Origin: an uncultured Bacteroidales bacterium
GTDB taxonomy: Bacteria; Bacteroidota; Bacteroidia; Bacteroidales; WCHB1-69
Reading direction: 5' to 3'
Assembly: GCA_905235135.1 (NCBI GenBank)
Contig: CAJOKR010000013.1
Location: 82-64,081, forward strand
Length of the DNA: 64,000 bases
This document shows positions 1-57,262 of this stretch, piece by piece. The notes beneath the pieces were generated by a model. It was not told the DNA's origin. It did no database searches and saw only the letters and a list, made by a program, of their open reading frames with translations. The position numbers were made by a program, and so were the translations under genes. Every line of letters starts with the position of its first letter. The stretch's first letter is position 1.

Positions 1-192
1 TTGAATGAAACTATAGCGTTTTTTATTAAAAACAATGTAATTATTTTTGAATCAGACATAATTATAGAAAGATGCAGCGTTGCATTGTATTTTGAGAATA
101 CAGGATGGACGTTCTCTGCAAATCATAGTGAACTATTAAAGTTATTTTCCTCATTTAGTCCGGTTTATATTCCTGTTATCTTTAAAAGGTAA
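1..192 (+). CDS. hypothetical protein, 5'-partial (open from window edge)
   Basis: Frame open from base 1 to TAA 190-192. Strongly AT-rich block unlike the GC-rich phage genes to the right. No recognisable motif. Confidence 0.25.
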   Translation: MNETIAFFIKNNVIIFESDIIIERCSVALYFENTGWTFSANHSELLKLFSSFSPVYIPVIFKR

Positions 193-267
193 ATTATAAA
201 TCACGAGTTTTATAATTCTATCACCGTCCCTATTAATATTAAACCTTTGAAGCACCGCAAACTCAAC

Positions 268-307
268 GTTTATGGCAAAGAGCAGCACCCGCAGGGTAGC
301 CATCTAC
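268..307 (+). repeat. 40-nt direct repeat, copy 1 (tape-measure 5'-end-like, GTTT ATG GCA AAG AGC...)
   Basis: Identical to 615-654 except 2 mismatches (283 c/t, 299 g/a). Followed by a tandem duplication of CCATCTA (300-306, 307-313). Confidence 0.8.
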
Positions 308-525
308 CATCTACGGCAAGGAGATAGAAGCCTCCGTCAAGTAAATACGTTCCGATTGGAAGGGATTATGTCAAATACGTTTTCTCTTCCATTTTTATGT
401 ATGATGTTGGTAATTTTTGAGTCCCATTACTCTCTTCTTTTGGGCGACCGGGCACGCTATCCATTCAAACTTCGCGGCAGACCGCTCGTAACCATTCCTA
501 TCGTTGTCGCGGACATCAAGGAAAC

Positions 526-558
526 AAAACCGCAGTCAATCAGCACGACTGCGGTTTT
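526..558 (+). terminator. stem-loop, rho-independent terminator-like
   Basis: AAAACCGCAGTC (526-537) pairs with GACTGCGGTTTT (547-558), loop AATCAGCAC. A-tract and T-tract flanks allow bidirectional use. Confidence 0.5.
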
Positions 559-614
559 CTTATGCCGTCCCATACCGTGACGGACGTTTGAAGCATCTTT
601 GCCACAAACAACAA

Positions 615-654
615 GTTTATGGCAAAGAGTAGCACCCGCAGGGTAACCATCTAC
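615..654 (+). repeat. 40-nt direct repeat, copy 2 (putative tape-measure start, ATG at 619)
   Basis: Matches 268-307. Reads MAKSSTRRVTIYI, then runs into the heptamer array at 659. Confidence 0.8.
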
Positions 655-658
655 ATCC

Positions 659-773
659 AATTAGGAATTGGGAATGAGGAATTAGGAATGCTGGAAAACC
701 GAAACGTTTTGCGCAAAACGTTTCGATTCCCGAAATAATCACTCATTACTCATTACAAATTGCTAATTGAATT
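659..773. repeat. cargo-less heptamer-array hairpin element with central perfect palindrome
   Basis: Left arm 659-690 is AATTAGG AATTGGG AATGAGG AATTAGG AATG. Right arm 737-771 reverse-complements to AATTAGC AATTTGT AATGAGT AATGAGT. A perfect 26-bp palindrome CGAAACGTTTTGCGCAAAACGTTTCG lies at 700-725. Confidence 0.75.
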
Positions 774-832
774 CCGCCTCCGCATGGTCGGAAATGTACA
801 ACAAGGTGCTACAGTTCGGCACGGGCGTATTC

Positions 833-1301
833 AATTAGGAATTGGGAATGAGGAATTAGGAATTGTCGGGAAGCCGTTTCTGAGTGCCGTCTTTTGTGGA
901 TTTGGTTATGGAAGAAAGCATCCTTATAAGTTCACGGCAGTCGGCAACAATGCTTTCAAAATGTGAAGATTCAATCTTCCCGCTCTCGTGAAGCAGTTCC
1001 AGCCAATACTCCGTTTCAACGGCCTCCTTGAATGCGATGTACATCTTGGCGAGGAAGTCGCTCCGGCTTTGCGCGGCCGTCGCTTCCCGCACATTCGCCC
1101 CGACGCTCGTTCCGCTTCTCGACACCTGATCTGCCAAGGTGAACAGTTTCTTTGTGACGAGATAATCATTCAACTTTATGATTCTCAAAGCAAAAGCCTT
1201 GCTTTTCACTACAATGGGATTGTCTTCGTTCATGGTTCAAAAATTTCCTGCGAAAGTACGATTTTTTTTAATTCCTAATTGCTAACTCCTAATTCCTAAT
1301 T
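833..1301 (-). mobile_element. IVS-like cassette: four-helix-bundle gene bracketed by inverted heptamer arrays
   Basis: Arrays 833-865 and 1270-1301 are inverted and both termini read AATTAGGAATT. 31 nt of 833-863 are identical to 659-689. Deleting these 469 nt joins the flanking ORF pieces in phase. Confidence 0.35.
856..1233 (-). CDS. four-helix-bundle protein (23S rRNA intervening-sequence protein / Avd family)
   Basis: 125 aa. Family-typical motifs QVSRSGTSVGANVREA and SRSDFLAKMYIAFKEAVETEYWLELL. The stop codon lies inside array 833-865. Confidence 0.85.
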   Translation of the reverse strand: MNEDNPIVVKSKAFALRIIKLNDYLVTKKLFTLADQVSRSGTSVGANVREATAAQSRSDFLAKMYIAFKEAVETEYWLELLHESGKIESSHFESIVADCRELIRMLSSITKSTKDGTQKRLPDNS

Positions 1302-1358
1302 GAACTGGGTTCCGCCGTCAACGAGCTGGGCAAGACCAGCACGGCCAACGAGCAGTAC

Positions 1359-4300
1359 ATGGTCAACTTCACGGGGCGGCTGGGCGGCATCGCCGTGCAG
1401 GCCGGACTCGCCGCCGACCAGATACTCGGCTTCGCCTCGGCTTTAGACCAGGATATGCAAAAGGTTGAGATGTCGGCCACGGCGTTCCAAAAGCTCATCC
1501 AAAAGGTCATATCCAAGCCCGCCGAGTTCGCCAAGATTGCCGGAATGGAACTCGGCAAGTTCAAGCAGCTCATGGAGACCGACATGAACGAGGCCCTGAA
1601 GAAAGTCCTCAAGGGCTTCTCCGGCGCGGGCGGCTTTGACAAGCTGCTGCCCATCTTCCAAGACCTTGGGCTTGACGGGGCAAGAGCCGCAGCGGCCATC
1701 TCATCCATGGCCAACAGCCTTGACAAGGTGGAGGCGGCACAGGCCATTGCCAACAAGGCCATGCTGGAGGGCGTGTCCTGCTACGAGGAGTTTTCCGTCA
1801 AGAACAACAACATGCAGGCCAACTTGGAGAAAGCCCGCAAGAAGTTCCAGGACACACGCCTCGAACTGGGGCAAAAGCTGTACCCAATATTGCTGAAGCT
1901 GACCAAGACCAGCACGGCGGGCATCAAGGCCATATCCACTGCCACCTCGTGGATAAGCAAGAACAAGGGCATGGTGCTGGCCATCATCGCGCCGCTCACT
2001 TTGTACATCGCCAAAGTGACGCTGCTGAAGACCCGTCTGTTGCTGCTCACTGCTGCAGAAAAAGCCGGAGTGGTCATCAAAGCCGCCTACAAGACGGCGG
2101 TCTATGCGGTGGCCGCAGTGCAGGCGAAGATGGCTGGCAACACCGAAAGGGCGGCAGCGGCGGTCAGAAAGATGAACGCATCGGCCAACGCCGTGCCGTG
2201 GGTGGCACTGGCCACCGCCATCGTAGCGGCAGGCACGGCCATCTACAAGCTGGCCACCCGCACCACGGCGGCGCAGAAGGCCATGAAGGACTTCCACGAG
2301 CGCACCGCCGAGCAGAAAGCGGAGGCCGACAGACTCTTCGGCGCACTTCGGGAACTGCGCAAGGGCACTGACGAATACAACAAGGTGCAGAAGAAAATCA
2401 TAGAGAACTATCCCACGATACTCCAGGACCAGCTGGACGAGAAGGGGAACATCCTCGACATCGAGCAGGCCTACAACAAGGTCATCACCGCCATGAAGCG
2501 CAAGATAGCCCTTGACATCCAGCAGGAGCAGATAACGGAGATAATGAAAAAGGAGATGGACAGACTGGGCACCTCGCTCAAACACCTATCGCCGGAAATC
2601 GGCGGCAAGGCGGTGGAGCTGGCCGAGAGCGGTCTTACCTCCGAGACCATCATCCGCTCCCTCAACCGCTACCTGCTCAAGGACAGAAAGCTGAACGACA
2701 AGGAGGAGTTTTGGATCCGCAACGTCACCAAGATTGTGCAAGAGGAGCAGGCCAAGATTGAGAAGGTGAAGCAGAACCTCGCCCCGTGGATCGGCGACCA
2801 GCTGGACGCGGTGGTCGCCGACATCGAGCAGGAAACCGCTGGCGGCAACGGCGGTGGCGGCGGAGGCATGGAATCCGCCGAGGATGTCGCCACCAAGAAG
2901 CTGACCGAATGGGAGAACCTCCAAAAGGAGGTCAGGAAGCTGTTCCAAAAGGACGAACTCATCGGGCTGGACAAAGTAGCCGCCGACAAGGAGAAAATCC
3001 GGCAGGAGTACGGCGACCTTGTGGAGCGCATCGAGGCCTTCACCGACAGCAAGGGGCAGGCGGCCAAAGACCTCGCAGACCAGGTGCGGCAGTACATGGC
3101 CAACGCCATAAACGAGATTGACCGCGCCGCCCGTGCCGAACAGATGAAGAAAGTCACGCAGCAGTACGAGAAACTGTGCGAGCAGTTCCAGACCCTCAAG
3201 GAGAAACTCGGGCAGAACCTCACCGACAGCTACTCGGCGGAACTGCTGCAGGTGGAGCAGAGGTGGAAAGCCACCATCGCGGAGATTGACCGCTCCATCG
3301 CCTACTACGAGAACAAGAGCAAGGAGGAGTACAATCCCGAAACGGGGACAGGCCTCAACGAAGACGAGCTGAGACTGCTTGAAGACCTGCTCGAACAGAA
3401 GCGGCAGGCCATAGCCCTCGAAGCGCAGGAGGAACTCTCCATCGTGCAGCGTGCCGAAGCCGACATCACCGAAGCGCTGATGACGGAGACGGAGAAGCGC
3501 ATCGCGGCGGTGAAAAAGGAGTACCAGGCGAAAATCTCCGCCGCCCAGTCCGCCATCGCCAAGCTCAAGGCATTGGGCGAGCAGGAGAAGCAAGACCGCA
3601 TCCGGCAGCTTGAGGAGCAGATAAAAGCCCTCAAGGAGAAGATGAACGAGGAGACCGCCGCGATTGAGAAGTCCTCCCAAAAGGGAAAGGCCACCACGGG
3701 CATCGGCAAGCTTCTCGACATCGATTGGAAGAACTTCAAGAAGGACTGGGAGAAGAACCTGTCGGACATCGCCGACGTGATAAAGGACTTCGCCGACACC
3801 GCCATGCAGCTCTTCGAATCCATCAACCAACTACAGAGCAACAAGGAAAAAGCCGCCCTCAACGAGTACAAGAAAGGCTATGACGAGCGGAAGAAGAAAT
3901 TAGACTGGCAATTAGAGCAGGGCATCATCTCGCAGGAGTACTACAACGCGCAGGTGGAGCAACTGGACAAGGAGCGCGACGCCAAGGAAAAGCAGCTGGA
4001 AATAGAGCAGTTCCGCAGGGAGAAGAAAGCGGCCATCGCGGAGGCCATAATCTCCGGCATCGTAGCCGCCGTGAAGAGCTTCGAGAACGGCGGCGGCTTC
4101 CCGTGGGGTCTCATCTCCATGGCACTCTCCCTCGCCGCCACGGGCGTGCAGGTCGCCGCCATCGCCTCGCAGCCGGAACCCTACGCCAAGGGCGGCTACA
4201 TCGAGCGGGAGAAGAACATCGTGGCAGGGGAGCGCGGCAGGGAGTGGATAGCCTCAAACGAGCTGGTGACAGCCCCCGAGACAAAGCCCGTCATCGAAGC

Positions 4301-4625
4301 CCTTGAGGAATACCGCAAGGGCAACAAAGCCCCGCTGCGGGAGATTGAAATGGCGGTTCCCGACAGCCGCAGCGTGTCCCAGGCGGCCACCGCCATTAGC
4401 CGTACATTTGCCCCCGAAAGAACAGAGAGAGCCGTCACCAGCAACCACTACCACACCGCGCAGGCGGATGACGGGACGATGGGCAGGATGCTGGAGGAGC
4501 TGACCGCGCTGCGCCAGTACATGAGCGACCCGAAGAACAGGCAGGCGGTCATCAGCCGGGAACTCCAGCTTGAGTTCGAGCAGCAGGAGAGCTTCCTCCG
4601 CAGGGCGGCTTCGCTAAAACAGTAG
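1359..4625 (+). CDS. phage tail tape-measure protein, 5'-disrupted
   Basis: 1088-aa ORF. The N-terminal part (FTGRLGGIAVQAGLAADQILGFASALDQ...MSATAFQKLI) resembles the TP901-type tape-measure core. Also has a hydrophobic Ala-rich stretch, a Gly run and long Glu/Lys/Ala coiled coil. Frame is open upstream to 1293 with no credible start. Confidence 0.8.
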   Translation: MVNFTGRLGGIAVQAGLAADQILGFASALDQDMQKVEMSATAFQKLIQKVISKPAEFAKIAGMELGKFKQLMETDMNEALKKVLKGFSGAGGFDKLLPIFQDLGLDGARAAAAISSMANSLDKVEAAQAIANKAMLEGVSCYEEFSVKNNNMQANLEKARKKFQDTRLELGQKLYPILLKLTKTSTAGIKAISTATSWISKNKGMVLAIIAPLTLYIAKVTLLKTRLLLLTAAEKAGVVIKAAYKTAVYAVAAVQAKMAGNTERAAAAVRKMNASANAVPWVALATAIVAAGTAIYKLATRTTAAQKAMKDFHERTAEQKAEADRLFGALRELRKGTDEYNKVQKKIIENYPTILQDQLDEKGNILDIEQAYNKVITAMKRKIALDIQQEQITEIMKKEMDRLGTSLKHLSPEIGGKAVELAESGLTSETIIRSLNRYLLKDRKLNDKEEFWIRNVTKIVQEEQAKIEKVKQNLAPWIGDQLDAVVADIEQETAGGNGGGGGGMESAEDVATKKLTEWENLQKEVRKLFQKDELIGLDKVAADKEKIRQEYGDLVERIEAFTDSKGQAAKDLADQVRQYMANAINEIDRAARAEQMKKVTQQYEKLCEQFQTLKEKLGQNLTDSYSAELLQVEQRWKATIAEIDRSIAYYENKSKEEYNPETGTGLNEDELRLLEDLLEQKRQAIALEAQEELSIVQRAEADITEALMTETEKRIAAVKKEYQAKISAAQSAIAKLKALGEQEKQDRIRQLEEQIKALKEKMNEETAAIEKSSQKGKATTGIGKLLDIDWKNFKKDWEKNLSDIADVIKDFADTAMQLFESINQLQSNKEKAALNEYKKGYDERKKKLDWQLEQGIISQEYYNAQVEQLDKERDAKEKQLEIEQFRREKKAAIAEAIISGIVAAVKSFENGGGFPWGLISMALSLAATGVQVAAIASQPEPYAKGGYIEREKNIVAGERGREWIASNELVTAPETKPVIEALEEYRKGNKAPLREIEMAVPDSRSVSQAATAISRTFAPERTERAVTSNHYHTAQADDGTMGRMLEELTALRQYMSDPKNRQAVISRELQLEFEQQESFLRRAASLKQ

Positions 4626-4628: not shown

Positions 4629-6272
4629 ATGGCAGTAACGATAAGAGAACAACCACACCCCCTTGACTTCGCAGGAAACCGCCCGCGCTTCCTGCTGAAG
4701 GGCACACCCGTCGCCACCGCCGGAAGCAAGAGCCGGAGCGCGTGGCGCGTGACCGCGCTGCCGTCCTCCGTGCTGACAGTCGGCTTCGGCGACACCGTCC
4801 TTGACTTCCAGATCACCTCGCCGTACCAGGCACGCGACAGGGCGGACAGGATAGCGGGCTACACCGACGCTTCCATGCTGAAAAAGGAGCTTCAGAGCAA
4901 GATAGCCGAGCATTACACCATTTCCCGCCACTACGATGTGACGTTGGCGGACGATCTCACCCTCACGTTCCTCTCCAAGGAGTACGGCGGCGAGGTCGTG
5001 ACCGTTGACGGCAACGGCAGCGGCAACATCGAGCAGGTGGGGCAAGTCCTGGGCGTGGCAAGGGTGCAACGTCCCAACTACGGCGTTTTGGCGTGGCTTG
5101 AAGTGACGCGCTACAACAGCGGTGCGGTGCAGGAACTGGCCACACCCGAAATGATCCTGCACCTTGACACGGACAACCTCGTGGAGCTGCCCCTTGAAAT
5201 CCTGCGTTCCTATTTCGCGGCCACTGACGTTCCAAACCTTACGGAGACATTCAACGCCTACCCGCTGCTGTACGCCACTCTCAAATACCGCCTCGCCTAC
5301 ACGGACATATCTGGGGAGGTGCCGCAGGCGGGAGTGGTGAAGCGGTCGCAGGAGTTCATCCTTGCCGCAGGCGGGCTTGATGACCGCCACCACGTCCTCA
5401 ACCTCGCCGACTGGCAGACCGCGATGGGCGCAGGGGCGACCCTTTCCGAACACGTTGCCGTCCGCAACTTCGGTTGTCCCACAGGGCTGACGGTGCGCAC
5501 CTACGCCTCGTTGCCACAATACGCCTACTTCCTGCTCTTCAACATATACCAGGACACCGCCCACACAAGAAGCCTCGTGGTGAAGGTTGACGTGCGGCTG
5601 AAAGACGGCCACACCTTTTCCCTCGACATGGGAACGGTCACGGTGCAGAACTTCAACATTGTGAGAGTGCCTTTGTCCGCCGCCGCCCTCGGAATCCCGT
5701 CAGCAGGGGACGTGCTTTCCTACACCGTCATTGCGGGAAACAACAAGGGCGAGACCTGGACACGCACATTCGTGCTGGAAAGAAAGCCCTACAACGCACA
5801 GGAGTTCCTGCTTCAGAACCGCTACGGGCTTTTGGAGACCCTCTCCACGGACTCTTCAGCCGTGGAGGAGCATACGGACGGCAGCGACACGGTGAAGAAC
5901 GGCGTTGTCGGCGTGGACATCACCGACACGGCCACCGTCCACACGGCACGGACGGGCTACAAGAACGAGCGAGAAATCAGGTTGGTGGCCGAGGCGATGA
6001 GAAACCGATTCAACTTCCGCTATGTTGACGGAAGAGCCGTGCCCATTGCGATACTTCCCGACACGCTCACCGTGACCGACACCGCCGAAGACCTCATTTC
6101 CGCCGAGTTCCAATACCGCTTCAACAAACCTTCCACGGCCAAGGCGGGCAACCTGCCCGTTGATCCGGGAACGGTGGAACGGTGGGACGACGACCTTATA
6201 TGGCGGGATGACCTGCAACGTGCAGGTGTCCGGCAGAACGAGATAGCAAACCAATACAACCTCACAAGATGA
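4629..6272 (+). CDS. phage tail-associated structural protein (function unknown)
   Basis: 547-aa ORF starting 4 nt after the tape-measure stop, with the same codon bias. Position is typical of distal-tail or tail-tip genes. No motif recognised. Confidence 0.6.
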   Translation: MAVTIREQPHPLDFAGNRPRFLLKGTPVATAGSKSRSAWRVTALPSSVLTVGFGDTVLDFQITSPYQARDRADRIAGYTDASMLKKELQSKIAEHYTISRHYDVTLADDLTLTFLSKEYGGEVVTVDGNGSGNIEQVGQVLGVARVQRPNYGVLAWLEVTRYNSGAVQELATPEMILHLDTDNLVELPLEILRSYFAATDVPNLTETFNAYPLLYATLKYRLAYTDISGEVPQAGVVKRSQEFILAAGGLDDRHHVLNLADWQTAMGAGATLSEHVAVRNFGCPTGLTVRTYASLPQYAYFLLFNIYQDTAHTRSLVVKVDVRLKDGHTFSLDMGTVTVQNFNIVRVPLSAAALGIPSAGDVLSYTVIAGNNKGETWTRTFVLERKPYNAQEFLLQNRYGLLETLSTDSSAVEEHTDGSDTVKNGVVGVDITDTATVHTARTGYKNEREIRLVAEAMRNRFNFRYVDGRAVPIAILPDTLTVTDTAEDLISAEFQYRFNKPSTAKAGNLPVDPGTVERWDDDLIWRDDLQRAGVRQNEIANQYNLTR

Positions 6273-6727
6273 TAGAGACAATCAGCAACGGAATGGATCT
6301 CGCCCGCGTGCGCGAAATCCTCAACAGACTCATTGAGCGTGTCAACGAGCTGGAACGTGTCACCAACAGCTATGACGACCTGGAGAACCGTCCTGCCATT
6401 AACGGAGTGACGCTCACCTCGCAGACTTCGGTGCAGGACTTGCAGATTCCCGCATCCTCGCTGGTGGGCTACAGCGACCTCATTGCACAGGCGCAGCAGG
6501 CGGCGGCGCAGACCGCCGAAAGCACGGCGCAGACCACAGCCCGCGCCAAGCTGGACGGCGACCTCACCAAGCTGCAGCCGAGAGAGTACGAGTTGGCCAC
6601 CTCCATGCTCGTTGTCATCGGCGACGACAAGGGCAACGCCTACAAGACCACCTTGGGCGACCTCATAGACTACCTCAAGCACGAGGTGCTGAAGCTCAAC
6701 GACCAATATCTGCGCGTTATCAAGTAA
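6269..6727 (+). CDS. phage hypothetical protein
   Basis: 152-aa ORF with ATGA start/stop overlap to the upstream gene. Lies in the tail module. Confidence 0.55.
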   Translation: MIETISNGMDLARVREILNRLIERVNELERVTNSYDDLENRPAINGVTLTSQTSVQDLQIPASSLVGYSDLIAQAQQAAAQTAESTAQTTARAKLDGDLTKLQPREYELATSMLVVIGDDKGNAYKTTLGDLIDYLKHEVLKLNDQYLRVIK

Positions 6728-6761
6728 TACCAACCAACAACTCACTTAAACTCAAACCACT

Positions 6762-7454
6762 ATGGGACAGATCATCAAATACCAACAGGAGGCCTTCAAC
6801 GGCCAGCTCGTGAACGGCTCGCCCGACTACGACATTCTCTATCCGAAGACCAGCGCCGACCAAGTGGAAGGCCTTGCCGCCCTCATCCAGTCACAGCTTC
6901 CGGCTATGACTGACACCAAGGTGCAGTCCATCACGCTGACGGACGGCACGGATTCCGCAGGTCCGAAAATCACCGTCACGCTCACGGACGGAACATCAGT
7001 GACGAGCACGACAATCAACCTCGCCTCGACCTCCAAACACGGCGTGACCAAGCTGACCAGTGCTGTGAACAGTTCCTCCGAAGTGCTGGCGGCAACCGCC
7101 AAAGCGGTCAAGACCGCCTACGATTTGGCGAACACCGCCAACACGACCGCCAATGGAAACGCCTCAGACCTTGCCGGCCTCCACAGCAACCTTGAGGACA
7201 AGTGCCTCAAAGTGGTGACCTACAACGACCTGAACATTCTCAAGAAAGCTGTTTCCCTCACCCTTGACGATAAAATCAAAGCCAGTAACTTGGTCAATGT
7301 CATCGCATTCAATGTGGCTAAAGACACCAATGCAGTGACTATTGTCAACGAGGGTGTGACGTTCGGCATTATAAGCGGAAAGCTGCAGGTCAACAGCACC
7401 GCCATTACGGTGCATCGCGTGAAAGTCGTTTACGAGTACTCATTCGCAAAATAA
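6762..7454 (+). CDS. phage tail fibre-like protein
   Basis: 230 aa. The motif SKHGVTKLTSAVNSSSEVLAATAKAVKTAYDLAN resembles a segment conserved in many tail fibre proteins. Confidence 0.55.
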   Translation: MGQIIKYQQEAFNGQLVNGSPDYDILYPKTSADQVEGLAALIQSQLPAMTDTKVQSITLTDGTDSAGPKITVTLTDGTSVTSTTINLASTSKHGVTKLTSAVNSSSEVLAATAKAVKTAYDLANTANTTANGNASDLAGLHSNLEDKCLKVVTYNDLNILKKAVSLTLDDKIKASNLVNVIAFNVAKDTNAVTIVNEGVTFGIISGKLQVNSTAITVHRVKVVYEYSFAK

Positions 7455-9937
7455 TGCTCACGATAGAGGTCAACGGTAACGCGCTGCATATCGCAAAGGG
7501 AACGTCCCTGCAGATGGAGGTGAACAGCTGCGTCTTCTCAACGGACGGCGTTGAGGGCGACATCATGTTCACCTTCGACGTGCCCGCCGCCAGCAACGAC
7601 ACGGTGTTCCGCCACGCCCGCTTCGTCTATGTGCAGCGGCTGAAGAAGTACGCTTGCACCGTCAAGGCGGGAGGGATAGAGATTGCACGCGGTGACCTCT
7701 ACATCCAAAAGGCGACACAGACCACGTACTCCTGCGGACTGGTCATCAACCCGTGGCCGGAAGGCTTTGCCGACAAAAAGCTGAAAGAGAACGACTACGG
7801 CGAGGATGTTGTCATCAGCCGCAATGCCACGGAACACAACGCCAAGTGGTTGGAGTTCCTCAAATCAACCCTCACTCCGGATTCCGTGGTCAAGTTCCCG
7901 CTGTTCCTGGACACGGCCTTTTATGGCAGCGGGAACAACGACTTCGGCTGGTTTCTCACGCAGTACGACAACGCGCCGGAGAATGTCAGCGGCATCCAAG
8001 CTTCTCTGAACACCAACGACAATGTGGGGCTTGACCGTTGCTACATCAACCGCCTCTTCTTCAACTCTGGCGGTGATGTGATAGAGGAAAGACCGGGAAA
8101 CCGAGGCGTGCGGGTGTTCAACAACCGCACCGCCGACAACCCCAACAGCTTCGCTTTCTGCCCAGCCCTCCAGCTTACATGGCTGCTGGGCAGGGTGGTG
8201 GCGAACGGGGGCTATCGGGCGGAGGGCGGATTCCTGCATGACACCGACACCGCAAAGATCTATTCGCAGAGTCTTCGCGCCTTGGACGGCCTGCTCACGC
8301 AGTTCGACAACGAGGCCGGATTCAGTGCTGGAATCACGCCGTCCGTGGACTACTACCACACCATGTTTGCCGGAATGCCACACTTCATGCAGCCGTTCAC
8401 CGATTCGGAGGGCAACGAGCAGTATCTTTTCTACCCCAAGGCCGACGGCACACACCATTTCCACGTGGTTGTCAGAACATACCTGCCCGCCAACGTGGTT
8501 CAGAACGGCACGACCGAAGTGGAGGAGAACGGCAACACCGTGACCAGGCACTACGAGGAGGCGCTTGTTTTCATGATGACCGACAGGCTGAACAATCTGT
8601 GGAAAGCCACGGCGTCAAGCCTCTACGGGAATTGGGACGACATGGATTCGCTGTTCGGCCACTGGTACCAGCCGTATTATGTGAAGACGTTCAAGTCCAA
8701 CCAGCTCTCCTCATTCGGCTATGCCGGAGCGGGCTTCTATGAGATAACTTTTGATTTCACCGTCAACGACATGGACAGAAACCAGATGTATATGTTTGCT
8801 TTCGCAAAGTGCAGGGGAATGATGGAAGAAGTCGGCGGATACGGCCAGCGGCTGGTGATCAAAGACTTCGAGAGCGTGCCGATTACCGCCGACGCGACCT
8901 CGTACAGCAAGGTCTATAACTGCTTCGCCGACAGACTGCGCTACGGCGAGCACGTCCCCGACCTTACCAACGCGGACTTCATCGGCACGCTGTGCAAGGC
9001 CTTTGGCCTGGCCATGTTCCTTGACTCCACCACCAAGCGGGCGGAGTTCGCCTTCGTGCGTGACATCCTTGAAAAGTCGGGCTTTCTCGACCTCACGGCA
9101 TACGCCGTGGACGGCGAGACCGCCATAGAGAAGACCGATGAGCGGAAATACGTTTTCAAGCTGGAGGGCGTGACCACGGACGAAACGGACAGCACCAAGA
9201 CGCTGCCCGCTGTGCCTACAGCGGACTGGCTGCCTGATGCAGCGGCCAACTACGGGAAAATCTGTTTCGTGGAGAATGAGAACCGCTACCGAAAGGCGGA
9301 GCGGGAGGGGGACAGCATCGCCAACTGGGTGTTCCGCTGGAACCCGCAGGGCGGTGCAAATCAAACCTTGAAGGCAGGGGAGGGAAGCGAGGAGAGCATG
9401 ACACCCACGCTGAAAGTTCCCGTGATGGAAATCACGGATTCCAAGTCCGAACACCCGGAGTTTGTCATGCGCATCGAGCAGGCGGGCTGCAGCCCTGTCT
9501 TCGACACGGGCAACACGGACTTCCCGATGGTGCTGGAGACCTACCTCGGTAGTCGTCAGCTGGCAATCCCGCAGGCGGGAAGCCCCTTCATAGAGGTGGC
9601 GCAGCCGACACGGCACTCCCGCTACGGCGACCCCCTTGACGGCGTTTCGCTGACCGTCCGTGGGGACAACTCCGTGGGGCAGCTGTGGGTGAGTTCGTGG
9701 CTGGACTTCCTCGCCAACTACGAGAAAGTGCGCTACCGCTTCCTGCTGCCGTTGTCGGAGTTCCTCAACCTTTGGCGGCTGCTGAAGCCGCAGGACGGGC
9801 GGGTGCAGAGTCACACCCGCTGGCTGCTGGTCGCCGGAGTGAAGAGCCTGCCCGTCAAAATTACCTTCCAGTTCACCGAGGGCGGCGAATCCGTCACTGC
9901 CGAAGTGGAGGCCGCGAAACTTAAAGTGACACTTTAA
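7454..9937 (+). CDS. large phage structural protein (baseplate or host-recognition candidate)
   Basis: 827-aa ORF with TAATG overlap to the fibre-like gene. Last gene of the tail module. No motif recognised. Confidence 0.6.
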   Translation: MLTIEVNGNALHIAKGTSLQMEVNSCVFSTDGVEGDIMFTFDVPAASNDTVFRHARFVYVQRLKKYACTVKAGGIEIARGDLYIQKATQTTYSCGLVINPWPEGFADKKLKENDYGEDVVISRNATEHNAKWLEFLKSTLTPDSVVKFPLFLDTAFYGSGNNDFGWFLTQYDNAPENVSGIQASLNTNDNVGLDRCYINRLFFNSGGDVIEERPGNRGVRVFNNRTADNPNSFAFCPALQLTWLLGRVVANGGYRAEGGFLHDTDTAKIYSQSLRALDGLLTQFDNEAGFSAGITPSVDYYHTMFAGMPHFMQPFTDSEGNEQYLFYPKADGTHHFHVVVRTYLPANVVQNGTTEVEENGNTVTRHYEEALVFMMTDRLNNLWKATASSLYGNWDDMDSLFGHWYQPYYVKTFKSNQLSSFGYAGAGFYEITFDFTVNDMDRNQMYMFAFAKCRGMMEEVGGYGQRLVIKDFESVPITADATSYSKVYNCFADRLRYGEHVPDLTNADFIGTLCKAFGLAMFLDSTTKRAEFAFVRDILEKSGFLDLTAYAVDGETAIEKTDERKYVFKLEGVTTDETDSTKTLPAVPTADWLPDAAANYGKICFVENENRYRKAEREGDSIANWVFRWNPQGGANQTLKAGEGSEESMTPTLKVPVMEITDSKSEHPEFVMRIEQAGCSPVFDTGNTDFPMVLETYLGSRQLAIPQAGSPFIEVAQPTRHSRYGDPLDGVSLTVRGDNSVGQLWVSSWLDFLANYEKVRYRFLLPLSEFLNLWRLLKPQDGRVQSHTRWLLVAGVKSLPVKITFQFTEGGESVTAEVEAAKLKVTL

Positions 9938-11127
9938 TTAGGGTCTTTTTCGTATGCAAAACCAGGGGCTTTCTCTCGTATCAATTCACTGAGGTGCGGG
10001 TCTGCATGGTTGGAATAGAGCGTTGTCATAGAGAGTGAGTAGTGGTCAGCCAGCTGCTTGACATCAAGGCCGTGTTTGAGCATTTCCGTGATACCCGTGT
10101 CGCGCAAGGAGTACTGCTGCATCTCCATCGGCAAATCGAACATCTTACGCAACTTGTCCCAGTACTTTCGGTATGGGCGCGGAGAAGCTGGTGTCTTTCC
10201 GGGCTTTTGGTAGGCACTGAACAAGTAATGTTCCGCCGGATGTCTGTCAAGGTTCAGTTTCAAAAGTAACTGTTCAATTTCTTTGGTCATGGGGACAATC
10301 CTCTGTTTGCCGTTTTTGGAGACTTCCGCCCTCACGGTGATGGTCTTGTTTGCCATGGAAACATCCCCGACCAAGAGCATCAGAATCTCTTTCGGACGCA
10401 GCAAAGCCCCGTAAATCAGTTCCAGGAACACGAGATAACCCGGATTGTTTTCCACGAGGTACTTTTGAATCTCCACGCGCTTTTCAACAGGAATAAGGAC
10501 ACGCTTTTTCTGCCCGACCTTCTTTGTCTTGATTTTTTGGAAGTGATTCTCCTTGCAATAGCACTTTTCTATCATCCAAGAAAACAACGCACTTCCGTTC
10601 TTGACATAGTTGTTGTACGTCCGTGGGCTGATGTCGCCGTCCCTGCCACATCTTTCGTTCTGAACATAGTCCATGAACTGCACAATCATACTGTGCGAAA
10701 TCATGGAACTGTAGATTTTCGGTGCTGTTTTTGCGAGCCATTCGCCAAATATTCCGGCGAAGGAGATGTAAGATCGGGCGGTCGTCGAGCGATGCTCTTT
10801 CTGCGCATCCTCCTTGTAGAGTTCCAACACTTCAGACATGGGCGTGTACATGCGCGAATCCTCTCCTTGGAAGTAAGGATTCCAACCCGTAGAGAGCTTC
10901 ATGTTAAGAGCAACAACAATGTTGTTGATATGTTTCTTAGCTTCCGTCTTGGAAGAATATCGGCTTAGAAGCCGCTGGAGTTTGATTCGCTTACGCGCCA
11001 GTTCTTGTGTCTGTGGATTCTCCACATAGTATTCAATCAACCAACCTGACTTGTTGGTTTTCACCGGCAGATAGTTTGTCGCGGCATACGCCGAAGATAC
11101 GGCTAACCTGTTCTGACTATATGACAT
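9934..11127 (-). CDS. tyrosine-type site-specific integrase
   Basis: 397 aa. C-terminal catalytic boxes LLRPKE (Arg), YSLRDTG (H/Y-x-x-R) and HYSLSMTTLY (His...Tyr). Adjacent to the 3' end of tRNA-Gly. Confidence 0.85.
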   Translation of the reverse strand: MSYSQNRLAVSSAYAATNYLPVKTNKSGWLIEYYVENPQTQELARKRIKLQRLLSRYSSKTEAKKHINNIVVALNMKLSTGWNPYFQGEDSRMYTPMSEVLELYKEDAQKEHRSTTARSYISFAGIFGEWLAKTAPKIYSSMISHSMIVQFMDYVQNERCGRDGDISPRTYNNYVKNGSALFSWMIEKCYCKENHFQKIKTKKVGQKKRVLIPVEKRVEIQKYLVENNPGYLVFLELIYGALLRPKEILMLLVGDVSMANKTITVRAEVSKNGKQRIVPMTKEIEQLLLKLNLDRHPAEHYLFSAYQKPGKTPASPRPYRKYWDKLRKMFDLPMEMQQYSLRDTGITEMLKHGLDVKQLADHYSLSMTTLYSNHADPHLSELIREKAPGFAYEKDPN

Positions 11128-11253
11128 TTTTTTTTTGAGTCTTGCTCAGCAAGTCTCAAAATGATGTTTGTCCCGTTTCTGTCCCGATTTTAAAACAGAA
11201 ATCAGCAACCTACCGTTGTAAGTTGCTGACACTGATTAAATTGGAGACGTTTG

Positions 11254-11326
11254 AGCGGTAGACGGGGTTCGAACCCGCGACCTGCGGCTTGGGAAGCCGC
11301 CGCTCTGCCAACTGAGCTACTACCGC
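11254..11326 (-). tRNA. tRNA-Gly (anticodon CCC)
   Basis: The reverse complement GCGGTAGTAGCTCAGTTGGCAGAGCGGCGGCTTCCCAAGCCGCAGGTCGCGGGTTCGAACCCCGTCTACCGCT folds as a cloverleaf. Acceptor GCGGTAG/CTACCGC, anticodon loop TTCCCAA, T-loop GGTTCGAA. Confidence 0.9.
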
Positions 11327-11330: not shown

Positions 11331-11417
11331 TGGTTTAAGGTTGATGGTTCATGGTTTAAGGATTCTGTCGATTCACGAGGCTATCCTTAAACCCTAAACC
11401 TTAAACATTAAACCTTA
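11331..11417. repeat. heptamer-array hairpin (GTTTAAG / CCTTAAA type)
   Basis: Left arm TGGTTTA AGGTTGA TGGTTCA TGGTTTA AGGAT. Right arm ATCCTTA AACCCTA AACCTTA AACATTA AACCTTA. An 11-bp perfect stem GGTTTAAGGAT/ATCCTTAAACC sits next to the loop. The ychF stop codon is inside the right arm. Confidence 0.75.
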
Positions 11418-12498
11418 TGTGCAAGATGTCGCCGTCCTGCACTTCGTAGTTCTTGCCTTCCACCGACAACTTGCCGGCTTCCTTGCATTTCAGTTCCGAT
11501 CCGTATTGCACCAGATCGTTGTATTTGATGACCTCGGCGCGGATGAAGCCGCGTTCCAGGTCGCTGTGGATGACGCCCGCCGCTTGCGGTGCCAACATGC
11601 CCCGCTTGATGGTCCAAGCGCGGTTTTCTTTGCCGCCGACGGTGAAGAAGGAGATGAGATCCAGCATTTTGTAGGCCGCGCGGATCACCTTGTTGACGCC
11701 CGGCTCGGTCAAGCCCACGTCTTCCAAGAAGGCCTTGCGGTCCTCCTCACTCTCCAACTCAGCAATTTCGGATTCGATCTTGGCACCAATGACCAGCATC
11801 TCTCCGCCGTTCTCTTCAACATATTTCTTCACAGCCTCAGAATAGGCATTTCCGGTGGCCGCGTCGTCATCATTCACGTTGCAGACGAACATCACGGGTT
11901 TCTCGGTGAGCAGCATCATATCGGCGACGACTGCCTTTTCGTCAGCGGTAACCTCCAAGGTGCGCACATTCTGGAAACCTTCGAGATGTTCCTTGTATTT
12001 CTTCAAAACCTCATAGTCGTGCTTGGCGTTCTTGTCACCAATCTTGGCGGCCTTTTCCACCTTGCTGATCTTGCGCTCAACCTGCTCCAGATCCTTGCAC
12101 TGCAACTCGAAATCCACAATCTCAATGTCGCGGACAGGATCCACAGAACCTTCCTCGTGAGGTAAGGCAGGGTTGTCAAAACAGCGCAGCACGTGGATGA
12201 GCGCGTCGCACAGGCGCACGTCCGCGAGGAAGCTATTGCCGATGCCCGCACCAGTGCTGGCACCTTTTGCCAGACCGGGAATATCCACTAAATCCAAATT
12301 GGCGAAGACCAACTTGTCGGCATGGATAAAGGTGTTGATATGCATCAGACGCTCGTCGGGCACTTGGCACACGCCGATATTGGACTTGTTGGTACTGTAC
12401 GCAAAATCCGTCACCTCCGCCTTTGTGTTGGAGATGCAGTTGAACATCGTGGTCTTACCCGAGTTCGTCAGTCCTACTATGCCGCATTTCAATCCCAT
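11401..12498 (-). CDS. ychF: redox-regulated ATPase YchF
   Basis: 365 aa. The start MGLKCGIVGLTNSGKTTMFN carries a G1 P-loop, and the C-terminal TGS-like end matches YchF length and architecture. Confidence 0.9.
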   Translation of the reverse strand: MGLKCGIVGLTNSGKTTMFNCISNTKAEVTDFAYSTNKSNIGVCQVPDERLMHINTFIHADKLVFANLDLVDIPGLAKGASTGAGIGNSFLADVRLCDALIHVLRCFDNPALPHEEGSVDPVRDIEIVDFELQCKDLEQVERKISKVEKAAKIGDKNAKHDYEVLKKYKEHLEGFQNVRTLEVTADEKAVVADMMLLTEKPVMFVCNVNDDDAATGNAYSEAVKKYVEENGGEMLVIGAKIESEIAELESEEDRKAFLEDVGLTEPGVNKVIRAAYKMLDLISFFTVGGKENRAWTIKRGMLAPQAAGVIHSDLERGFIRAEVIKYNDLVQYGSELKCKEAGKLSVEGKNYEVQDGDILHIRFNV

Positions 12499-17064: not shown

Positions 17065-17454
17065 ATGAGAAGAATGACAGTAAAGAGAAAAGTGAAATTT
17101 GAAGGTGTTCCCTACGAAGGAAACCTGGAAGAGTTAATCATACAAGCCCTGATTGAGAAGCAGGGAGTGGATATCCATTGCGTCAACTTGAAGAAAATCA
17201 ACCACGTTTATTTCGACTATTTTATAGTCTGCACCGGCAACTCCAAGCCGCATGTGGAGACGTTGTGCGACTTTGTGCAGGAGCAGACCCAGCGCGTGGC
17301 CGGCGTCAAACCGCTGCACGTCGAGGGGCTCGAAAACAAAGAGTGGGTGCTGCTCGACTATTTCAATATCCTGGTCCACATTTTCCTCCCCGAGGCCCGC
17401 GAGCACTACCAGCTTGAGTCTCTCTGGGGCGATGCGGATATCCAGAAGTTTTAA
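17065..17454 (+). CDS. rsfS: ribosome silencing factor RsfS
   Basis: 129 aa. The motif FDYFIVCTGNSKPHV...WVLLDYFNILVHIF is typical of RsfS/IojAP. Lies upstream of ftsH. Confidence 0.85.
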   Translation: MRRMTVKRKVKFEGVPYEGNLEELIIQALIEKQGVDIHCVNLKKINHVYFDYFIVCTGNSKPHVETLCDFVQEQTQRVAGVKPLHVEGLENKEWVLLDYFNILVHIFLPEAREHYQLESLWGDADIQKF

Positions 17455-17490
17455 GGCAAAAGGCAATAGGCAATAGTAATTGGAAATTAA
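17454..17490. repeat. heptamer array filling the rsfS-ftsH spacer
   Basis: AGGCAAA AGGCAAT AGGCAAT AGTAATT GGAAATT AATG. It starts at the last base of the rsfS TAA and ends at the ftsH ATG. Confidence 0.7.
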
Positions 17491-26500: not shown

Positions 26501-26751
26501 GTAACACGTATAACACTGTCCGTTTGGGTAACCAGTGTTGGATGAAAAAAAATTTGCGTTCCACGCACTATTCGGACGGAACGGCGATTGCCTATGGCGG
26601 CACCACAACATCCACAACAGAGGCCTACTATTATGCGCCCAACGGTTCGTTCACCTATGGATACCTCTACAACTGGAAGGCGGTGATGCGCAACTCATCC
26701 AGCAGCCAAGCCAACCCTAGTGGAGTGCAAGGCATCTGTCCTATCGGATGA
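23506..26751 (+). CDS. large repetitive cell-surface protein ending at an in-frame TGA
   Basis: Signal peptide MKKSTTLITLLLLCVVSIFAQ. About 8 copies of (T/A)NVSxFxNDAGYIT plus NKPT motifs, a coiled segment, and 5 repeats of roughly 90 aa ending TTYYVRAYATNSVGT.YG. The start of a Fib_succ-type domain follows (YGYLYNWKA...CPIG). Confidence 0.8.
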   Translation: MKKSTTLITLLLLCVVSIFAQAPEKFTYQAVVRNASNALVVNTQVGVRVNILQGSATGNAVYSESHMATTNANGLITVNIGGGSVLHGTFADIDWSDGPYFLKTDLDPNGGNDYTITSVQQLLSVPYALYAKDAGNGFSGDYNDLVNVPQNPQIPADISAFNNDAGYITGYTETDPQYNAWDKDYNDLINKPTIPTVPTNVSEFTNDAGYITTQDIPTIPTVPTNVSAFTNDAGYLTTYTETDPQYNAWNKDYNDLINKPVIPVVPTNVSGFNNDAGYITAAQVPAQVNADWNATSGAAQILNKPTLFSGNYNDLTNKPTLFDGNYNSLSNKPNLATVALSGSYNDLINKPAIPTAVGELTNNMGYITLAQVPAQMNADWNATTGAAQILNKPTIPTVPTNVSAFTNDAGYITSAAIPTVPTNVSAFNNDAGYITSTDIPAIPTVPANVSTFENDAHYITEAQLNALLAAMINTIDSLRDRIEELENNPSQPIPAQTLGSVTTSTMTYVGVNSAIGGGNVTSDGNGSILARGICWSTSNPPYITDSHTNEGTAVGVFSSTASGLNPSTTYYVRAYVTNSVGTAYGSVVSFTTTSSGDPVLPIVTTGNVTNILPYTATFHGNVVYKGGTGLLARGFVYGPAHNPTLEDSFTVDGITEGSFSATVTGLSATMTYYVRAYATNSVGTVYGEEVSFVSSTTPPAVNTAEVTAISYTSATCGGDVPFSGGAAVTAKGLCYGLNEHPTISDNVVNGGAGVGSFTGNLTGLTANTVYYVRAFATNSVGTNYGEERVFSTLSYLIPTVEAVAPSEISYTTFTCGGNVTDEGSYPVTTRGVCYAITPNPTINDNYIPLGTGTGTFSTTIFGLSPSTTYYVRAYAINQVGQAYSEQMVVTTLANTKPTVATLSASGLGKCIGNIVSTGGLAITDRGFCYSTYPNPTIVESHISAGAGDGQFSSMLPDMVDGTTYFVRAYATNMLGTSYGQQISFTYGCGNSFTVTDYDGNTYNTVRLGNQCWMKKNLRSTHYSDGTAIAYGGTTTSTTEAYYYAPNGSFTYGYLYNWKAVMRNSSSSQANPSGVQGICPIG

Positions 26752-27138: not shown

Positions 27139-27166
27139 AATGCAGAATGCAAAATGTAGAATGAAT
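27139..27166. repeat. heptamer array (AATGNAG type)
   Basis: AATGCAG AATGCAA AATGTAG AATGAAT, starting 3 nt after the stop at 27135. Confidence 0.7.
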
Positions 27167-29106: not shown

Positions 29107-29132
29107 TGTAGAATGCAGAATGATGAATATTA
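29105..29132. repeat. heptamer array (AATGNAG type) spanning a stop and the next start
   Basis: AATGTAG AATGCAG AATGATG AATATTA. Overlaps TAA 29104-29106 and contains ATG 29120. Confidence 0.7.
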
Positions 29133-29920: not shown

Positions 29921-29947
29921 GAATTAGGAATTAGGAATTAGGAATTT
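29908..29947. repeat. perfect heptamer array (AATTAGG x5)
   Basis: AATTAGG repeated 5 times (29908-29942), then AATTT. Contains the phosphatase stop TAG 29918-29920 and ends at ATG 29948. Confidence 0.9.
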
Positions 29948-32217: not shown

Positions 32218-32320
32218 TGTTTAAGGTTTAAGGTTTAAGGTTTAAGGTGTCGTTATTAGGCCCTTTCTCCTTAAACCCTCAACCTTAAACTATAAACTAA
32301 TAAACCTTAAACCATTAAAG
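32205..32320. repeat. long heptamer-array hairpin (GTTTAAG / CCTTAAA type) filling an intergenic spacer
   Basis: Left arm GTTTAGA GTTTAAT then GTTTAAG x4. Right arm CCTTAAA CCCTCAA CCTTAAA CTATAAA CTAATAAA CCTTAAA CCATTAAA. Contains the gmhB TAA and ends 1 nt before ATG 32322. Confidence 0.85.
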
Positions 32321-39890: not shown

Positions 39891-39931
39891 CAATATTTTC
39901 GAAACATTAAGAGAAACTATAATAAGAGGTT

Positions 39932-57258: not shown

Positions 57259-57262
57259 TAAT

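Follow-up and report, generated by a model that had tools for sequence, protein, structure and literature searches.

An inverted-heptamer cassette carrying a four-helix-bundle gene in a truncated tape-measure gene of a Bacteroidales prophage remnant

How a small four-helix-bundle (4HB) gene bracketed by inverted heptamer arrays comes to lie within a phage tape-measure gene (TMP) is the question raised by this locus, found near one end of the window (the whole 64,000-nucleotide stretch of DNA that was analysed). The first-pass annotation regarded the unit as a discrete insertion that splits the phage gene. Its discreteness stands, whereas the evidence goes against a simple insertion that could be taken out to give back an in-phase gene. 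The unit, designated cassette 'B', is probably a selfish and exchangeable cassette of the rRNA intervening sequence (IVS) type, residing in a truncated gene of a prophage remnant. The features concerned are as follows:

255..355, plus strand: diverged second copy of the TMP start with its 30-nt leader (about 88-92% nucleotide identity)
619..657, plus strand: TMP codons 1-13 (MAKSSTRRVTIYI), of which the first, at 619, is the true TMP start
658..772: ORF-less inverted heptamer element 'A', occupying the place of TMP codons 14-69
773..829, plus strand: piece of TMP still in place, about codons 70-88 (ASAWSEMYNKVLQFGTGV)
830..864: heptamer array at the left end of 'B' (3' arm on the gene strand), holding the 4HB stop codon
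856..1233, minus strand: 4HB protein gene (125 aa; PF05635/TIGR02436; RxxxSxxxNxxE motif)
1234..1269, minus strand: leader that joins the upstream array to the ATG and holds an imperfect Bacteroidetes-type -7 box
1270..1304: heptamer array at the right end of 'B' (5' arm on the gene strand)
1305..4625, plus strand: TMP codon 222 to stop (open from 1302; first ATG at 1359, aa 240)
4629..11326: prophage remnant beyond TMP (tail genes, tyrosine integrase, tRNA-Gly)
6762-7454: tail-fibre repeat protein of the remnant
9934-11127, minus strand: tyrosine integrase of the remnant
11253-11326, minus strand: tRNA-Gly of the remnant

Cassette 'B' is a 475-bp unit (830-1304) comprised of the minus-strand 4HB gene, a short leader and two inverted heptamer arrays. 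The product of 856-1233(-) belongs to the PF05635/TIGR02436 (23S rRNA IVS protein) family, in agreement with its earlier assignment to the 23S-IVS/Avd group. In profile searches, it matched PF05635 (E=9.4e-27; 93.8 bits, with 33.8 as the cut-off) and TIGR02436 (E=7.8e-30; 103.3 bits, with 24 as the cut-off), and the nearest solved structure was 2RLD (E=5e-28). The family motif GxxRxxxSxxxNxxE, as defined in PMC3936711, occurs in the protein as RSGTSVGANVRE. The solved structures of the family are pentamers, namely 2RLD (five chains in the entry) and Xcc0516 (cited in PMC4990558). No match for the protein was obtained in PHROGs or PADLOC, and its gene is the sole ORF of the cassette, within which no mobility gene was found.

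The two arrays form an inverted repeat (830-864 and 1270-1304) of 35 nt with 89% complementarity, built of AATTAGG-type units (TTCAATTAGG...CCTAATTGAA). Period 7 was detected by TRF at 833-864 and 1269-1301, which bears out the inverted arrays of the first-pass annotation, the repeat extending a further 3 nt on either side; the left array does supply the stop codon of the 4HB gene (856-858). The window has 15 occurrences of AATTAGGAATT with one mismatch at most, where 0.9 would be expected, and none of 100 shuffles attained that count. The 35-nt right array is 100% identical in the related locus L002 and recurs in cassette C3 of L083. A long terminal stem had been suggested as worth looking for, and MFE folding of the sense-strand RNA (826-1308) predicts one, about 35 bp long, with the ORF inside it (-152 kcal/mol, z=-4.8). 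In the leader, TACTTTCG (1251-1258, minus strand) is presumably an imperfect Bacteroidetes-type -7 box, and the box is perfect, TACCTTTG, in the cassettes of L003 and L004. A Bacteroidetes promoter of its own as a general cassette feature was ruled out by the counts: of 32 Bacteroidota cassettes only 5, and of 46 others none, have the TAnnTTTG box in the 70 nt upstream. An Rfam search of 380-1320 returned nothing relevant, and one of the whole window detected no rRNA, only three tRNAs.

The identity of the host gene is given by matches to TIGR01760 (from profile position 118), PF10145 and PHROG tape-measure families, as well as by 96%-identical homologues. As the first reading had it, a frame at 773-832 ends at TAG 836-838, that of TMP runs open from 1302, and the two are fused in phase when 833-1301 (469 nt) is removed. 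This phase agreement merely reflects cuts at codon boundaries. The expectation that the flanks are contiguous in an uninterrupted TMP was refuted, on the terms set by the first reading itself, by the 96%-identical homologue P0002 (locus L001), in which 773-829 corresponds to aa 70-88 and the sequence from 1305 onward starts at aa 222. Thus, about 133 codons (402 nt; codons 89-221) are gone, and the 475-nt cassette stands in their place. Codons 14-69 (56 residues), where element 'A' stands, are absent too, while allele L095 has aa 1-236 unbroken and carries neither element. The three TMP pieces occupy three different frames, and the ORF of cassette 'B' runs antisense to TMP. Since both codon stretches have been replaced, the full-length TMP is destroyed and excision could not restore the gene, which has lost its N-terminal third rather than being elegantly split. 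The remaining 1107-codon frame is intact, with dN/dS of 0.06-0.15 between alleles, and is therefore a poor fit to a long-dead gene. No att-site repeat was found between window positions 1-800 and the tRNA-Gly/integrase end of the remnant.

Element 'A' is composed of a left array (659-689, AATTAGG type), a central hairpin (697-728) and a right array (737-772). Two other ORF-less elements, 11332-11417 and 32205-32319, are 75% identical to each other, and about ten further heptamer arrays with various units are present elsewhere in the window without a 4HB gene, so that arrays are not peculiar to 4HB genes or cassettes. Element 658-772, the TMP start at 619 and these ten or so arrays had been overlooked in the first reading.

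The presence, position and content of cassettes are polymorphic among related TMP alleles. Cassette junctions were located at 829/1305, 1573/1914, 2263/2780 and 1834/2488, and an additional form, 1573/2780, is equivalent to the product of recombination between two cassettes. The alleles hold up to three cassettes at different sites, all antisense to TMP, with 300-650 nt of target replaced per cassette. At seven junction pairs compared with uninterrupted references, target DNA had been lost in every case (11 to 653 nt) and no target-site duplication was detected. The cassette ends have no conserved terminal or target motif beyond the array, and microhomology at the junctions is 0-3 nt. As evidence of cassette exchange, dS between the window ORF and the ORF at the same junction in L004 and L089 is 1.3-1.45, compared with 0.31-0.40 for flanking TMP. 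In L003, an ORF 97% identical to that of the window lies between another, non-heptamer inverted repeat, so the protein and the repeat are not tightly coupled. The 4HB ORF is under purifying selection, with dN/dS of 0.12 between cassette types and dN=0 (dS 0.025-0.038) among the P0044 copies.

The cassette type extends far beyond this gene. Genome loci (n=80, mostly MAGs) were chosen by similarity to the single 4HB protein of the window. A period-7 array was present upstream of 59 of 73 relatives (81%) and downstream of 54 (74%), with 47 having both, where 0.04 was expected per flank; arrays are about 20-fold enriched beside 4HB genes in many phyla. Their orientation is specific, the purine-rich unit being upstream and its complement downstream, and they are mostly the sole arrays within the 6-kb locus. 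The inverted-repeat score of the flanks had a median of 44, versus 17 (maximum 28) at control positions, and the own 3' flank was the best partner of the 5' flank in 19 of the 73 cassettes. The heptamer unit varies between cassettes while the complementarity of the two arms is kept; that is, the arms co-vary. The same layout was observed in all eight plasmid homologues, which come from cultured cyanobacteria, a spirochaete, a Cytophagales strain and a Chloroflexota strain. On pNPUN02 of Nostoc punctiforme, 298 nt have given way to the cassette in a gene for 138 aa, which Nostoc sp. C052 carries in intact form.

The single 4HB query had matches in over 6,000 clusters. Relatives numbered one in IMG/VR versus 380 in genomes, so the cassette is not a phage feature. 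None of 20 related loci scanned was located in rRNA, and the 73 relatives lie mostly between unrelated housekeeping genes. The strand is shared with the neighbouring gene upstream of 82% and downstream of 74% of cassettes, figures not clearly above the usual same-strand bias of bacteria. Mismatches in 66 stems (67 G:U versus 47 A:C, p=0.07) give no clear sign of selection for RNA-level pairing of the sense strand. The idea that arrays are selected as all-frame stops, period 7 being coprime with 3, was rejected for want of any excess over random heptamers: stops in all three frames were found in 53% (sense) and 43% (antisense) of cassette arrays, and in 52% and 46% of random heptamers of the same composition.

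The closest known counterpart is the ORF-bearing 23S rRNA IVS of Leptospira, Coxiella burnetii, Xanthomonas and others, which encodes the same PF05635 'S23p' protein on the sense strand. IVS and cassette are similar in size (about 430-480 nt), and in both the ORF is enclosed by a terminal inverted-repeat stem of about 28-35 bp. The Coxiella IVS has its S23p ORF within a 28-bp terminal stem that RNase III cleaves; tandem GACAGAT heptamers, varying in number between strains, make up the 5' part of that stem (PMC4990558). The IVS-like architecture recognized in the first-pass annotation is thereby upheld, down to the heptamers, although the unit is AATTAGG in cassette 'B'. In addition, cassette 'B', unlike an IVS, is not located in an rRNA gene and replaces part of a protein-coding gene in antisense orientation, and related TMP alleles carry several cassettes in tandem. 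IVSs are seen as selfish, and the mechanism of their mobility is not established (PMC4990558). In the open-access literature searched, the Coxiella paper was the only one found to tie heptamer repeats to 4HB/S23p genes, and no general description of a cross-phylum heptamer-flanked 4HB cassette type was found. Cassette 'B' is likely to be one copy of such a cross-phylum class, built like the ORF-bearing 23S rRNA IVSs.

Briefly, the cassette would be a selfish unit that moves horizontally without a transposase of its own, and its landing would cost target DNA. Recombination via its repetitive arrays might later swap or remove it. In longer transcripts, by analogy with rRNA IVSs, the arms could pair and be cut by RNase III, and the 4HB protein may act on the element's own repeats or RNA. 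Since searches revealed neither a mobility enzyme nor a target-site duplication nor a conserved target motif, mobility is deduced only from distribution and polymorphism.

A different view, which we consider unlikely though conceivable, is that the cassette is a domesticated module, in which the 4HB pentamer is a putative nucleic-acid-binding regulator or defence accessory that recognizes cognate arrays (its own flanks and solo arrays), cassettes being kept for regulating or insulating their neighbours. It is consistent with purifying selection on the ORF even within a truncated gene, with the co-variation of the arms, and with the solo AATTAGG array (29898-29949) directly upstream of the ATG at 29948, other arrays also being present in leaders. 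Many homologues are found within R-M or defence-like operons on the strand of their neighbours, and others were reported in cas loci (PMC3936711). A binding protein was also proposed for TAACTGA heptamer repeats (MacGregor 2015, PMC4679880). However, the 97%-identical ORF of L003 has non-heptamer flanks, cassettes accumulate in and destroy a prophage gene, and the PADLOC defence models gave no match.

The TAACTGA repeats belong to the intergenic tandem heptamers of Cyanobacteria (STRR), Beggiatoaceae and Bacteroidetes (PMC4679880). Like the cassette arrays, these arrays consist of 3-7 or more AT-rich heptamers, are intergenic and often abut a start codon; their taxa overlap with those of the cassettes, and horizontal spread has been suspected without an established mechanism. 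On the other hand, MacGregor (2015) dealt with direct repeats, for which translational regulation was proposed, and made no mention of inverted pairs bracketing a 4HB gene; the terms 'intervening', 'S23', 'helix bundle' and 'Avd' have zero occurrences in that text. A bolder and rather doubtful proposal is that 4HB genes with cognate inverted arrays are unrecognised autonomous mobile cassettes. The pentameric 4HB protein, which is no canonical transposase, would then serve as the mobility or maintenance factor, and integration would overwrite a target stretch of similar length. Decay to ORF-less hairpins and solo arrays might give rise to the intergenic heptamers of Cyanobacteria (STRR), Bacteroidota and Beggiatoaceae, and 23S rRNA IVSs would be the special case of cassettes that landed where fragmentation is tolerated.

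Two groups of mobile elements offer partial parallels. Terminal inverted repeats, as in DNA transposons and MITEs, are present in cassette 'B', and the ORF-less elements (658-772, 11332-11417 and 32205-32319), like MITEs and REP/BIME, are short, bounded by inverted repeats, hairpin-forming and dispersed. In contrast to MITEs, the heptamer elements show loss of target DNA instead of target-site duplication, their arms are tandem arrays and not unique terminal repeats, and no cognate transposase has been identified. Integron cassettes likewise have one small ORF per unit and an imperfect inverted-repeat end resembling a recombination site, and are stacked in one orientation at one locus with exchangeable content, whereas the 4HB cassettes have no integron integrase or attI, carry repeats on both sides of the ORF and have remains of the target gene between them.

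It is very improbable that the association is a coincidence, in which simple repeats made by slippage fill non-coding DNA and the 4HB gene is merely there after prophage decay. The ten or so arrays of various units without a 4HB gene in the window and a nascent tandem 7-nt duplication (CCATCTA, 300-314) within the second copy of the TMP start are in line with such slippage, but neither the 20-fold, orientation-specific enrichment at 4HB genes of many phyla, mostly as sole arrays of their loci, nor the identical 35-nt array in three different junction contexts is. Scarcely credible is an intron-, intein- or IVS-like insert in a live TMP whose product is restored by removal at the DNA, RNA or protein level: despite the in-phase junction, the terminal stem and the intact downstream frame under purifying selection, the flanks are 133 residues apart in intact homologues with 56 more missing upstream, the three pieces are in three frames, the ORF is antisense to TMP, and excision of an IVS by RNase III leaves the RNA unreligated (PMC4990558).

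We know of no description of inverted heptamer arrays around avd genes. A remnant of a DGR with the 4HB gene as its Avd accessory gene is likewise extremely unlikely, since, although Avd has a homologous four-helix-bundle fold in the same superfamily (PMC10053308) and phage tail genes, common DGR targets, are nearby, a scan of neighbouring ORFs gave no reverse transcriptase and self-BLAST of the window no template/variable repeat pair near cassette 'B', and the relatives lie mostly between unrelated housekeeping genes.

The selfish IVS-type cassette would bear on two puzzles. PF05635/TIGR02436 proteins are very numerous and are scattered over operons, R-M and CRISPR loci and rRNA genes without a known function, and tandem heptamer arrays have been a puzzle for decades in several phyla. 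The two are tied here by a gene and inverted arrays that travel as a unit across phyla, by arms that co-vary, and by the overwriting of target DNA without target-site duplication, and both are thereby linked to rRNA IVSs. For annotation, such cassettes account for truncated or split genes and for odd C-terminal extensions that run into arrays. Nostoc punctiforme PCC 73102 and Treponema saccharophilum, for instance, are cultured carriers in which experiments would be cheap.

The 125-aa ORF of the cassette encodes a protein of the four-helix-bundle (4HB) family, as the first-pass annotation had recognized from sequence motifs: PF05635 (23S rRNA-intervening sequence protein, E=9.4e-27) and TIGR02436 (four helix bundle protein, E=7.8e-30) were matched in profile searches far beyond both curated cut-offs, and the nearest solved structure, with five chains in its entry, is 2RLD (E=5e-28). 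The ORF is enclosed by inverted arrays of a degenerate 7-mer.

856-1233, minus strand: 4HB ORF, 125 aa (ORF and profile matches)
833-864 and 1269-1301: period-7 arrays bracketing the 4HB ORF (repeat scan)

The terminal inverted repeat (830-864 / 1270-1304; TTCAATTAGG...CCTAATTGAA) comprises 35 nt with 89% complementarity and is 3 nt longer per side than first described, the cassette being 830-1304. The window contains 15 copies of AATTAGGAATT (at most one mismatch), where 0.9 would be expected. The 4HB stop codon lies inside the left array, and the two flanking frames (773-832 and the one open from 1302) agree with the earlier description. In addition, the sense-strand RNA of 826-1308 has a predicted fold of -152 kcal/mol (z=-4.8), in which a terminal stem of ~35 bp surrounds the whole ORF. 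The sequence features noted at first reading are thus real.

It had also been claimed that 833-1301 splits a phage tape-measure protein gene (TMP) in phase, in the manner of an intervening sequence (IVS) of 23S rRNA genes. Deleting this segment does join the two frames in phase, but the flanks are not contiguous in uninterrupted homologues. Such homologues were found with the hypothetical fused protein (cassette removed) as query; the top match, P0002 (96% identical), is the intact TMP of the related locus L001 and has the layout MAKSSTRRVTIYINGKEV...GSAASAWSEMYNKVLQFGTGIGGLTQ...(133 residues)...LLSLGSAVNELGKTSTANEQYMVNF. The two flanks are therefore separated by 133 residues, and the in-phase split-gene reading is wrong. 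The TMP pieces were mapped onto P0002, and the breakpoints were placed by DNA alignment with L001.

619-657: TMP aa 1-13
773-829: TMP ~aa 70-88
1305 onward: TMP aa 222 onward
657/658: breakpoint, L001 6039
773: breakpoint, ~L001 6205-6209
829/830: breakpoint, L001 6261
1304/1305: breakpoint, L001 6663/6664

According to these breakpoints, 402 nt of TMP have been replaced by the 475-nt cassette (830-1304). Another ~165 nt of TMP is replaced by a second element (658-772), overlooked at first reading, which consists of an AATTAGG-type left array, a hairpin in the middle, and an inverted array on the right; its left array is 97% identical to that of the cassette. The three TMP pieces occupy three different reading frames.

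TMP alleles that are ~86-97% identical, on rumen and gut Bacteroidales contigs, differ in cassette load (window positions serve as TMP DNA coordinates).

L001: no cassette
L095: aa 1-236 uninterrupted; cassette between 1573 and 1914
L089 and the window: cassette only at the 1304/1305 junction
L004: cassette at the 1304/1305 junction and a second between 1834 and 2488
L083: three cassettes (right end at 1305; 1573/1914; 2263/2780) and an ORF-less element at aa 15-22
L087: one cassette spanning 1573/2780
L002: right array of the window cassette (35/35 nt identical), here meeting TMP at a point 143 nt further in; DNA on the other side differs

Recombination between two cassettes of an allele like L083 would be expected to give the L087 state. 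Every cassette runs antisense to TMP. Wherever an uninterrupted reference was available, target DNA had been lost and no target-site duplication was seen; the nucleotides removed/inserted are 402/475, 340/455, 516/475, and 653/495 for ORF-bearing cassettes in TMP and 11/133 for the ORF-less element of L083. At the 1305 site, the left junction falls after aa 88 in the window and after aa 50 in L004, L083, L087, and L089, while the right junction is equal to within one base. The remaining TMP frame is intact over 1107 codons, and the alleles differ mainly synonymously (dN/dS 0.06-0.15). Such a frame is at odds with a long-dead gene: either inactivation is recent and the same junction has been repeatedly hit or converted, or a truncated TMP is still used. 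The allele combinations at two cassette sites, of which all four occur (L001, L095, the window, and L083), lead to the same alternatives.

The TMP region is a prophage remnant. Downstream of TMP lie tail genes, including one for a tail-fibre-repeat protein, followed by a tyrosine integrase gene and tRNA-Gly; no phage DNA was found 5′ of the TMP start in the window, L001, or L004.

9934-11127, minus strand: tyrosine integrase
255-355: diverged second copy of the TMP start, with a tandem 7-nt duplication (CCATCTA) at 300-314

The CCATCTA duplication falls within a few bases of the spot at which element 658-772 begins in the main TMP copy and at which L083 has its ORF-less element, so that three different lesions occur at one spot of the TMP start. 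A conserved stretch of ~120 nt (GGGCGACCGGGCACGCTATCC...) precedes the TMP start in the window (441-565), L001 (5824-5940), and L004, and terminates in a strong hairpin with a T-run after it (window 523-561); Rfam gave no match to the stretch, whose fold is unexceptional (z=-1.8). L004 carries two copies (reverse-complement coordinates 70-147 and 2633-2760) flanking a 2.5-kb block.

The architecture is far from confined to this locus. When one genome per species was scanned with the 4HB protein, 380 stretches encoding a relative were obtained, of which the best 80 (45-98% identical to the query) were kept. They come from Bacteroidales, Clostridia, Kiritimatiellia, Fibrobacter, Treponema, Synergistaceae, Anaerolineaceae, Neisseriaceae, and one gammaproteobacterium. 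Among the 73 of these with enough flank, a period-7 array occurred within 250 nt upstream in 59, downstream in 54, and on both sides in 47, the background being 0.04 per flank-sized window of the same loci. Read on the gene strand, upstream arrays are AATTAGG/AATGAGG/AGTTAGG-like and have their complement downstream; a median of 22 nt separates the upstream array from the ATG, and the start of the downstream array reaches or overlaps the stop codon in 30/58 cases. When the 5′ flank was aligned locally with the reverse-complemented 3′ flank, the median score was 44 (75% at ≥36), against a median of 17 and at most 28 for random positions in these loci. The stems range from 24 to 61 bp, with a median of 33 bp.

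Units vary by cassette (AATTAGG, AGGAGTT, AATGCGG, AATTCGG, AAAATTC, AATTGAC, AAAAGAG, and others), and the dominant units of the two arms are at most one mismatch apart in 40/49. Whole arms co-vary: out of 73 candidate partners, a 5′ flank was matched best by the 3′ flank of its own cassette in 19 cases, and this partner ranked within the top five in 37. Most units (L005-L082, L103-L110) fit A-(A/G)-T-(T/G)-N-N-N, with a frequent self-complementary core AATT and three variable last bases.

Finished plasmids of cultured organisms served as an independent sample, in which inverted heptamer arrays were present at 8/8 loci, each with its own unit.

Nostoc punctiforme: AATTCGC
Dolichospermum: AATTCGT
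Gloeocapsa: ATTTTAG
Bernardetia: GATTAGT
Further carriers: Euhalothece, Planktothrix, Treponema saccharophilum, Chlorohelix

Several plasmid cassettes lie within methylase, helicase, or DUF1156-Swt1/HEPN operons. Those of Dolichospermum, Euhalothece, Chlorohelix, and Gloeocapsa (L105, L106, L108, L110) sit between operon genes on the same strand; in Burkholderia sp. PAMC 26561 (L114), the DUF1156 and Swt1 genes are just 5 nt apart, without a cassette. In N. punctiforme pNPUN02, a 452-nt cassette replaces 298 nt amid a 138-aa gene, of which Nostoc sp. C052 pC052_A has the intact form and two other plasmids have no copy; this is the same overwrite-not-duplicate signature as in TMP, in another phylum. 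Lost and gained DNA are of similar size in five ORF-bearing events. The cassette is not a phage feature, since only one relative, likewise with arrays, was found among 2.9 million viral contigs.

With regard to the ORF itself, the window copy and the same-junction ORF of L004/L089 (P0044 type) share 76% aa identity with dS 1.3-1.45 and dN/dS 0.12, whereas the adjacent TMP of the same alleles has a dS of only 0.31-0.40. The window cassette is closer to the third cassette of L083, at a different site (93% nt, identical right array). In L003, an ORF and leader 97% identical to those of the window lie between a different, non-heptameric 18-bp perfect inverted repeat. P0044 copies from different samples show synonymous differences only. 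It follows that the 4HB protein is under purifying selection even within a truncated gene, and that the ORF module moves between repeat frames, the cassette content being exchangeable. The other repeat, TTTCAGGCATTGACA (L003 1-500, L002 1-63), replaces the heptamer arms around the 97%-identical gene in L003 and adjoins a heptamer array in L002.

Other repeats also occur in the window. Two ORF-less inverted heptamer-array hairpins (11332-11417 and 32205-32319; GGTTTAA / CCTTAAA arms) are 75% identical to each other; the former lies between tRNA-Gly and ychF (11401-12498, minus), whose last codons and stop are supplied by the right arm of this hairpin. A solo array of 6-7 AATTAGG units (29898-29949), the unit of the cassette arms, takes up the whole interval from the stop codon of ORF 29039-29920 to the next gene's ATG at 29948. 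Five further solo arrays are intergenic (17451-17479 AGGCAAT, 27139-27163 AATGCAG, 37486-37518 AACTGCT, 38886-38928 AATGAAG, and 63260-63297 AGTTAGT), one of them abutting tRNA-Leu. Short dispersed repeats (39926-40020 / 57956-58050; 43606-43656 / 57260-57310 / 59910-59961), 84-90% identical, are unrelated to the heptamer arrays. ORF 23506-26751 (1081 aa), with internal repeats of ~66 and ~160 nt at 23980-24885, probably encodes a repetitive surface protein.

The IVS analogy drawn at first reading holds, and extends much further than could then be known. In Coxiella burnetii, the 23S IVS spans 428 nt and is described as 'selfish'; its S23p (PF05635) ORF lies in the sense direction, RNase III cleaves its terminal stem of 28 bp, and tandem GACAGAT heptamers occur 5′ of the ORF in strain-variable copy number (PMC4990558). 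The window cassette has the same build, but lies outside rRNA. Genes for 23S_rRNA_IVP have been noted earlier within cas loci (PMC3936711), and also in rRNA insertions of CPR bacteria. Intergenic heptamer direct repeats were described in Beggiatoaceae, Cyanobacteria, and Bacteroidetes, without a mechanism or a link to 4HB genes (PMC4679880). Avd, the accessory protein of DGRs, is a homologue of the 4HB protein; however, neither a reverse transcriptase nor a template/variable repeat pair was found at the window cassette. No statement of a general rule joining 4HB genes to inverted heptamer arrays was found in the open-access literature searched.

The hypothesis that selection maintains the arrays as stops in all six frames was rejected, promoter boxes are not a general property of the cassettes, and a G:U versus A:C test on the stems did not show RNA-level selection. 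The cassette is a discrete gene-plus-inverted-array unit spread across phyla; its presence, position, and content are polymorphic between close alleles, and target DNA is lost at every junction examined. Decay probably gave rise to the ORF-less hairpins and the solo arrays. We infer a selfish, mobile cassette. By analogy with rRNA IVSs, its arrays may act as pairing arms and so make read-through RNA a substrate of RNase III; they may also provide portable homology for recombination. Recombination between arrays, as illustrated by L087 versus L083 and by the near-identical left arrays of the window's two elements, would exchange ORF modules and delete the DNA between neighbouring elements.
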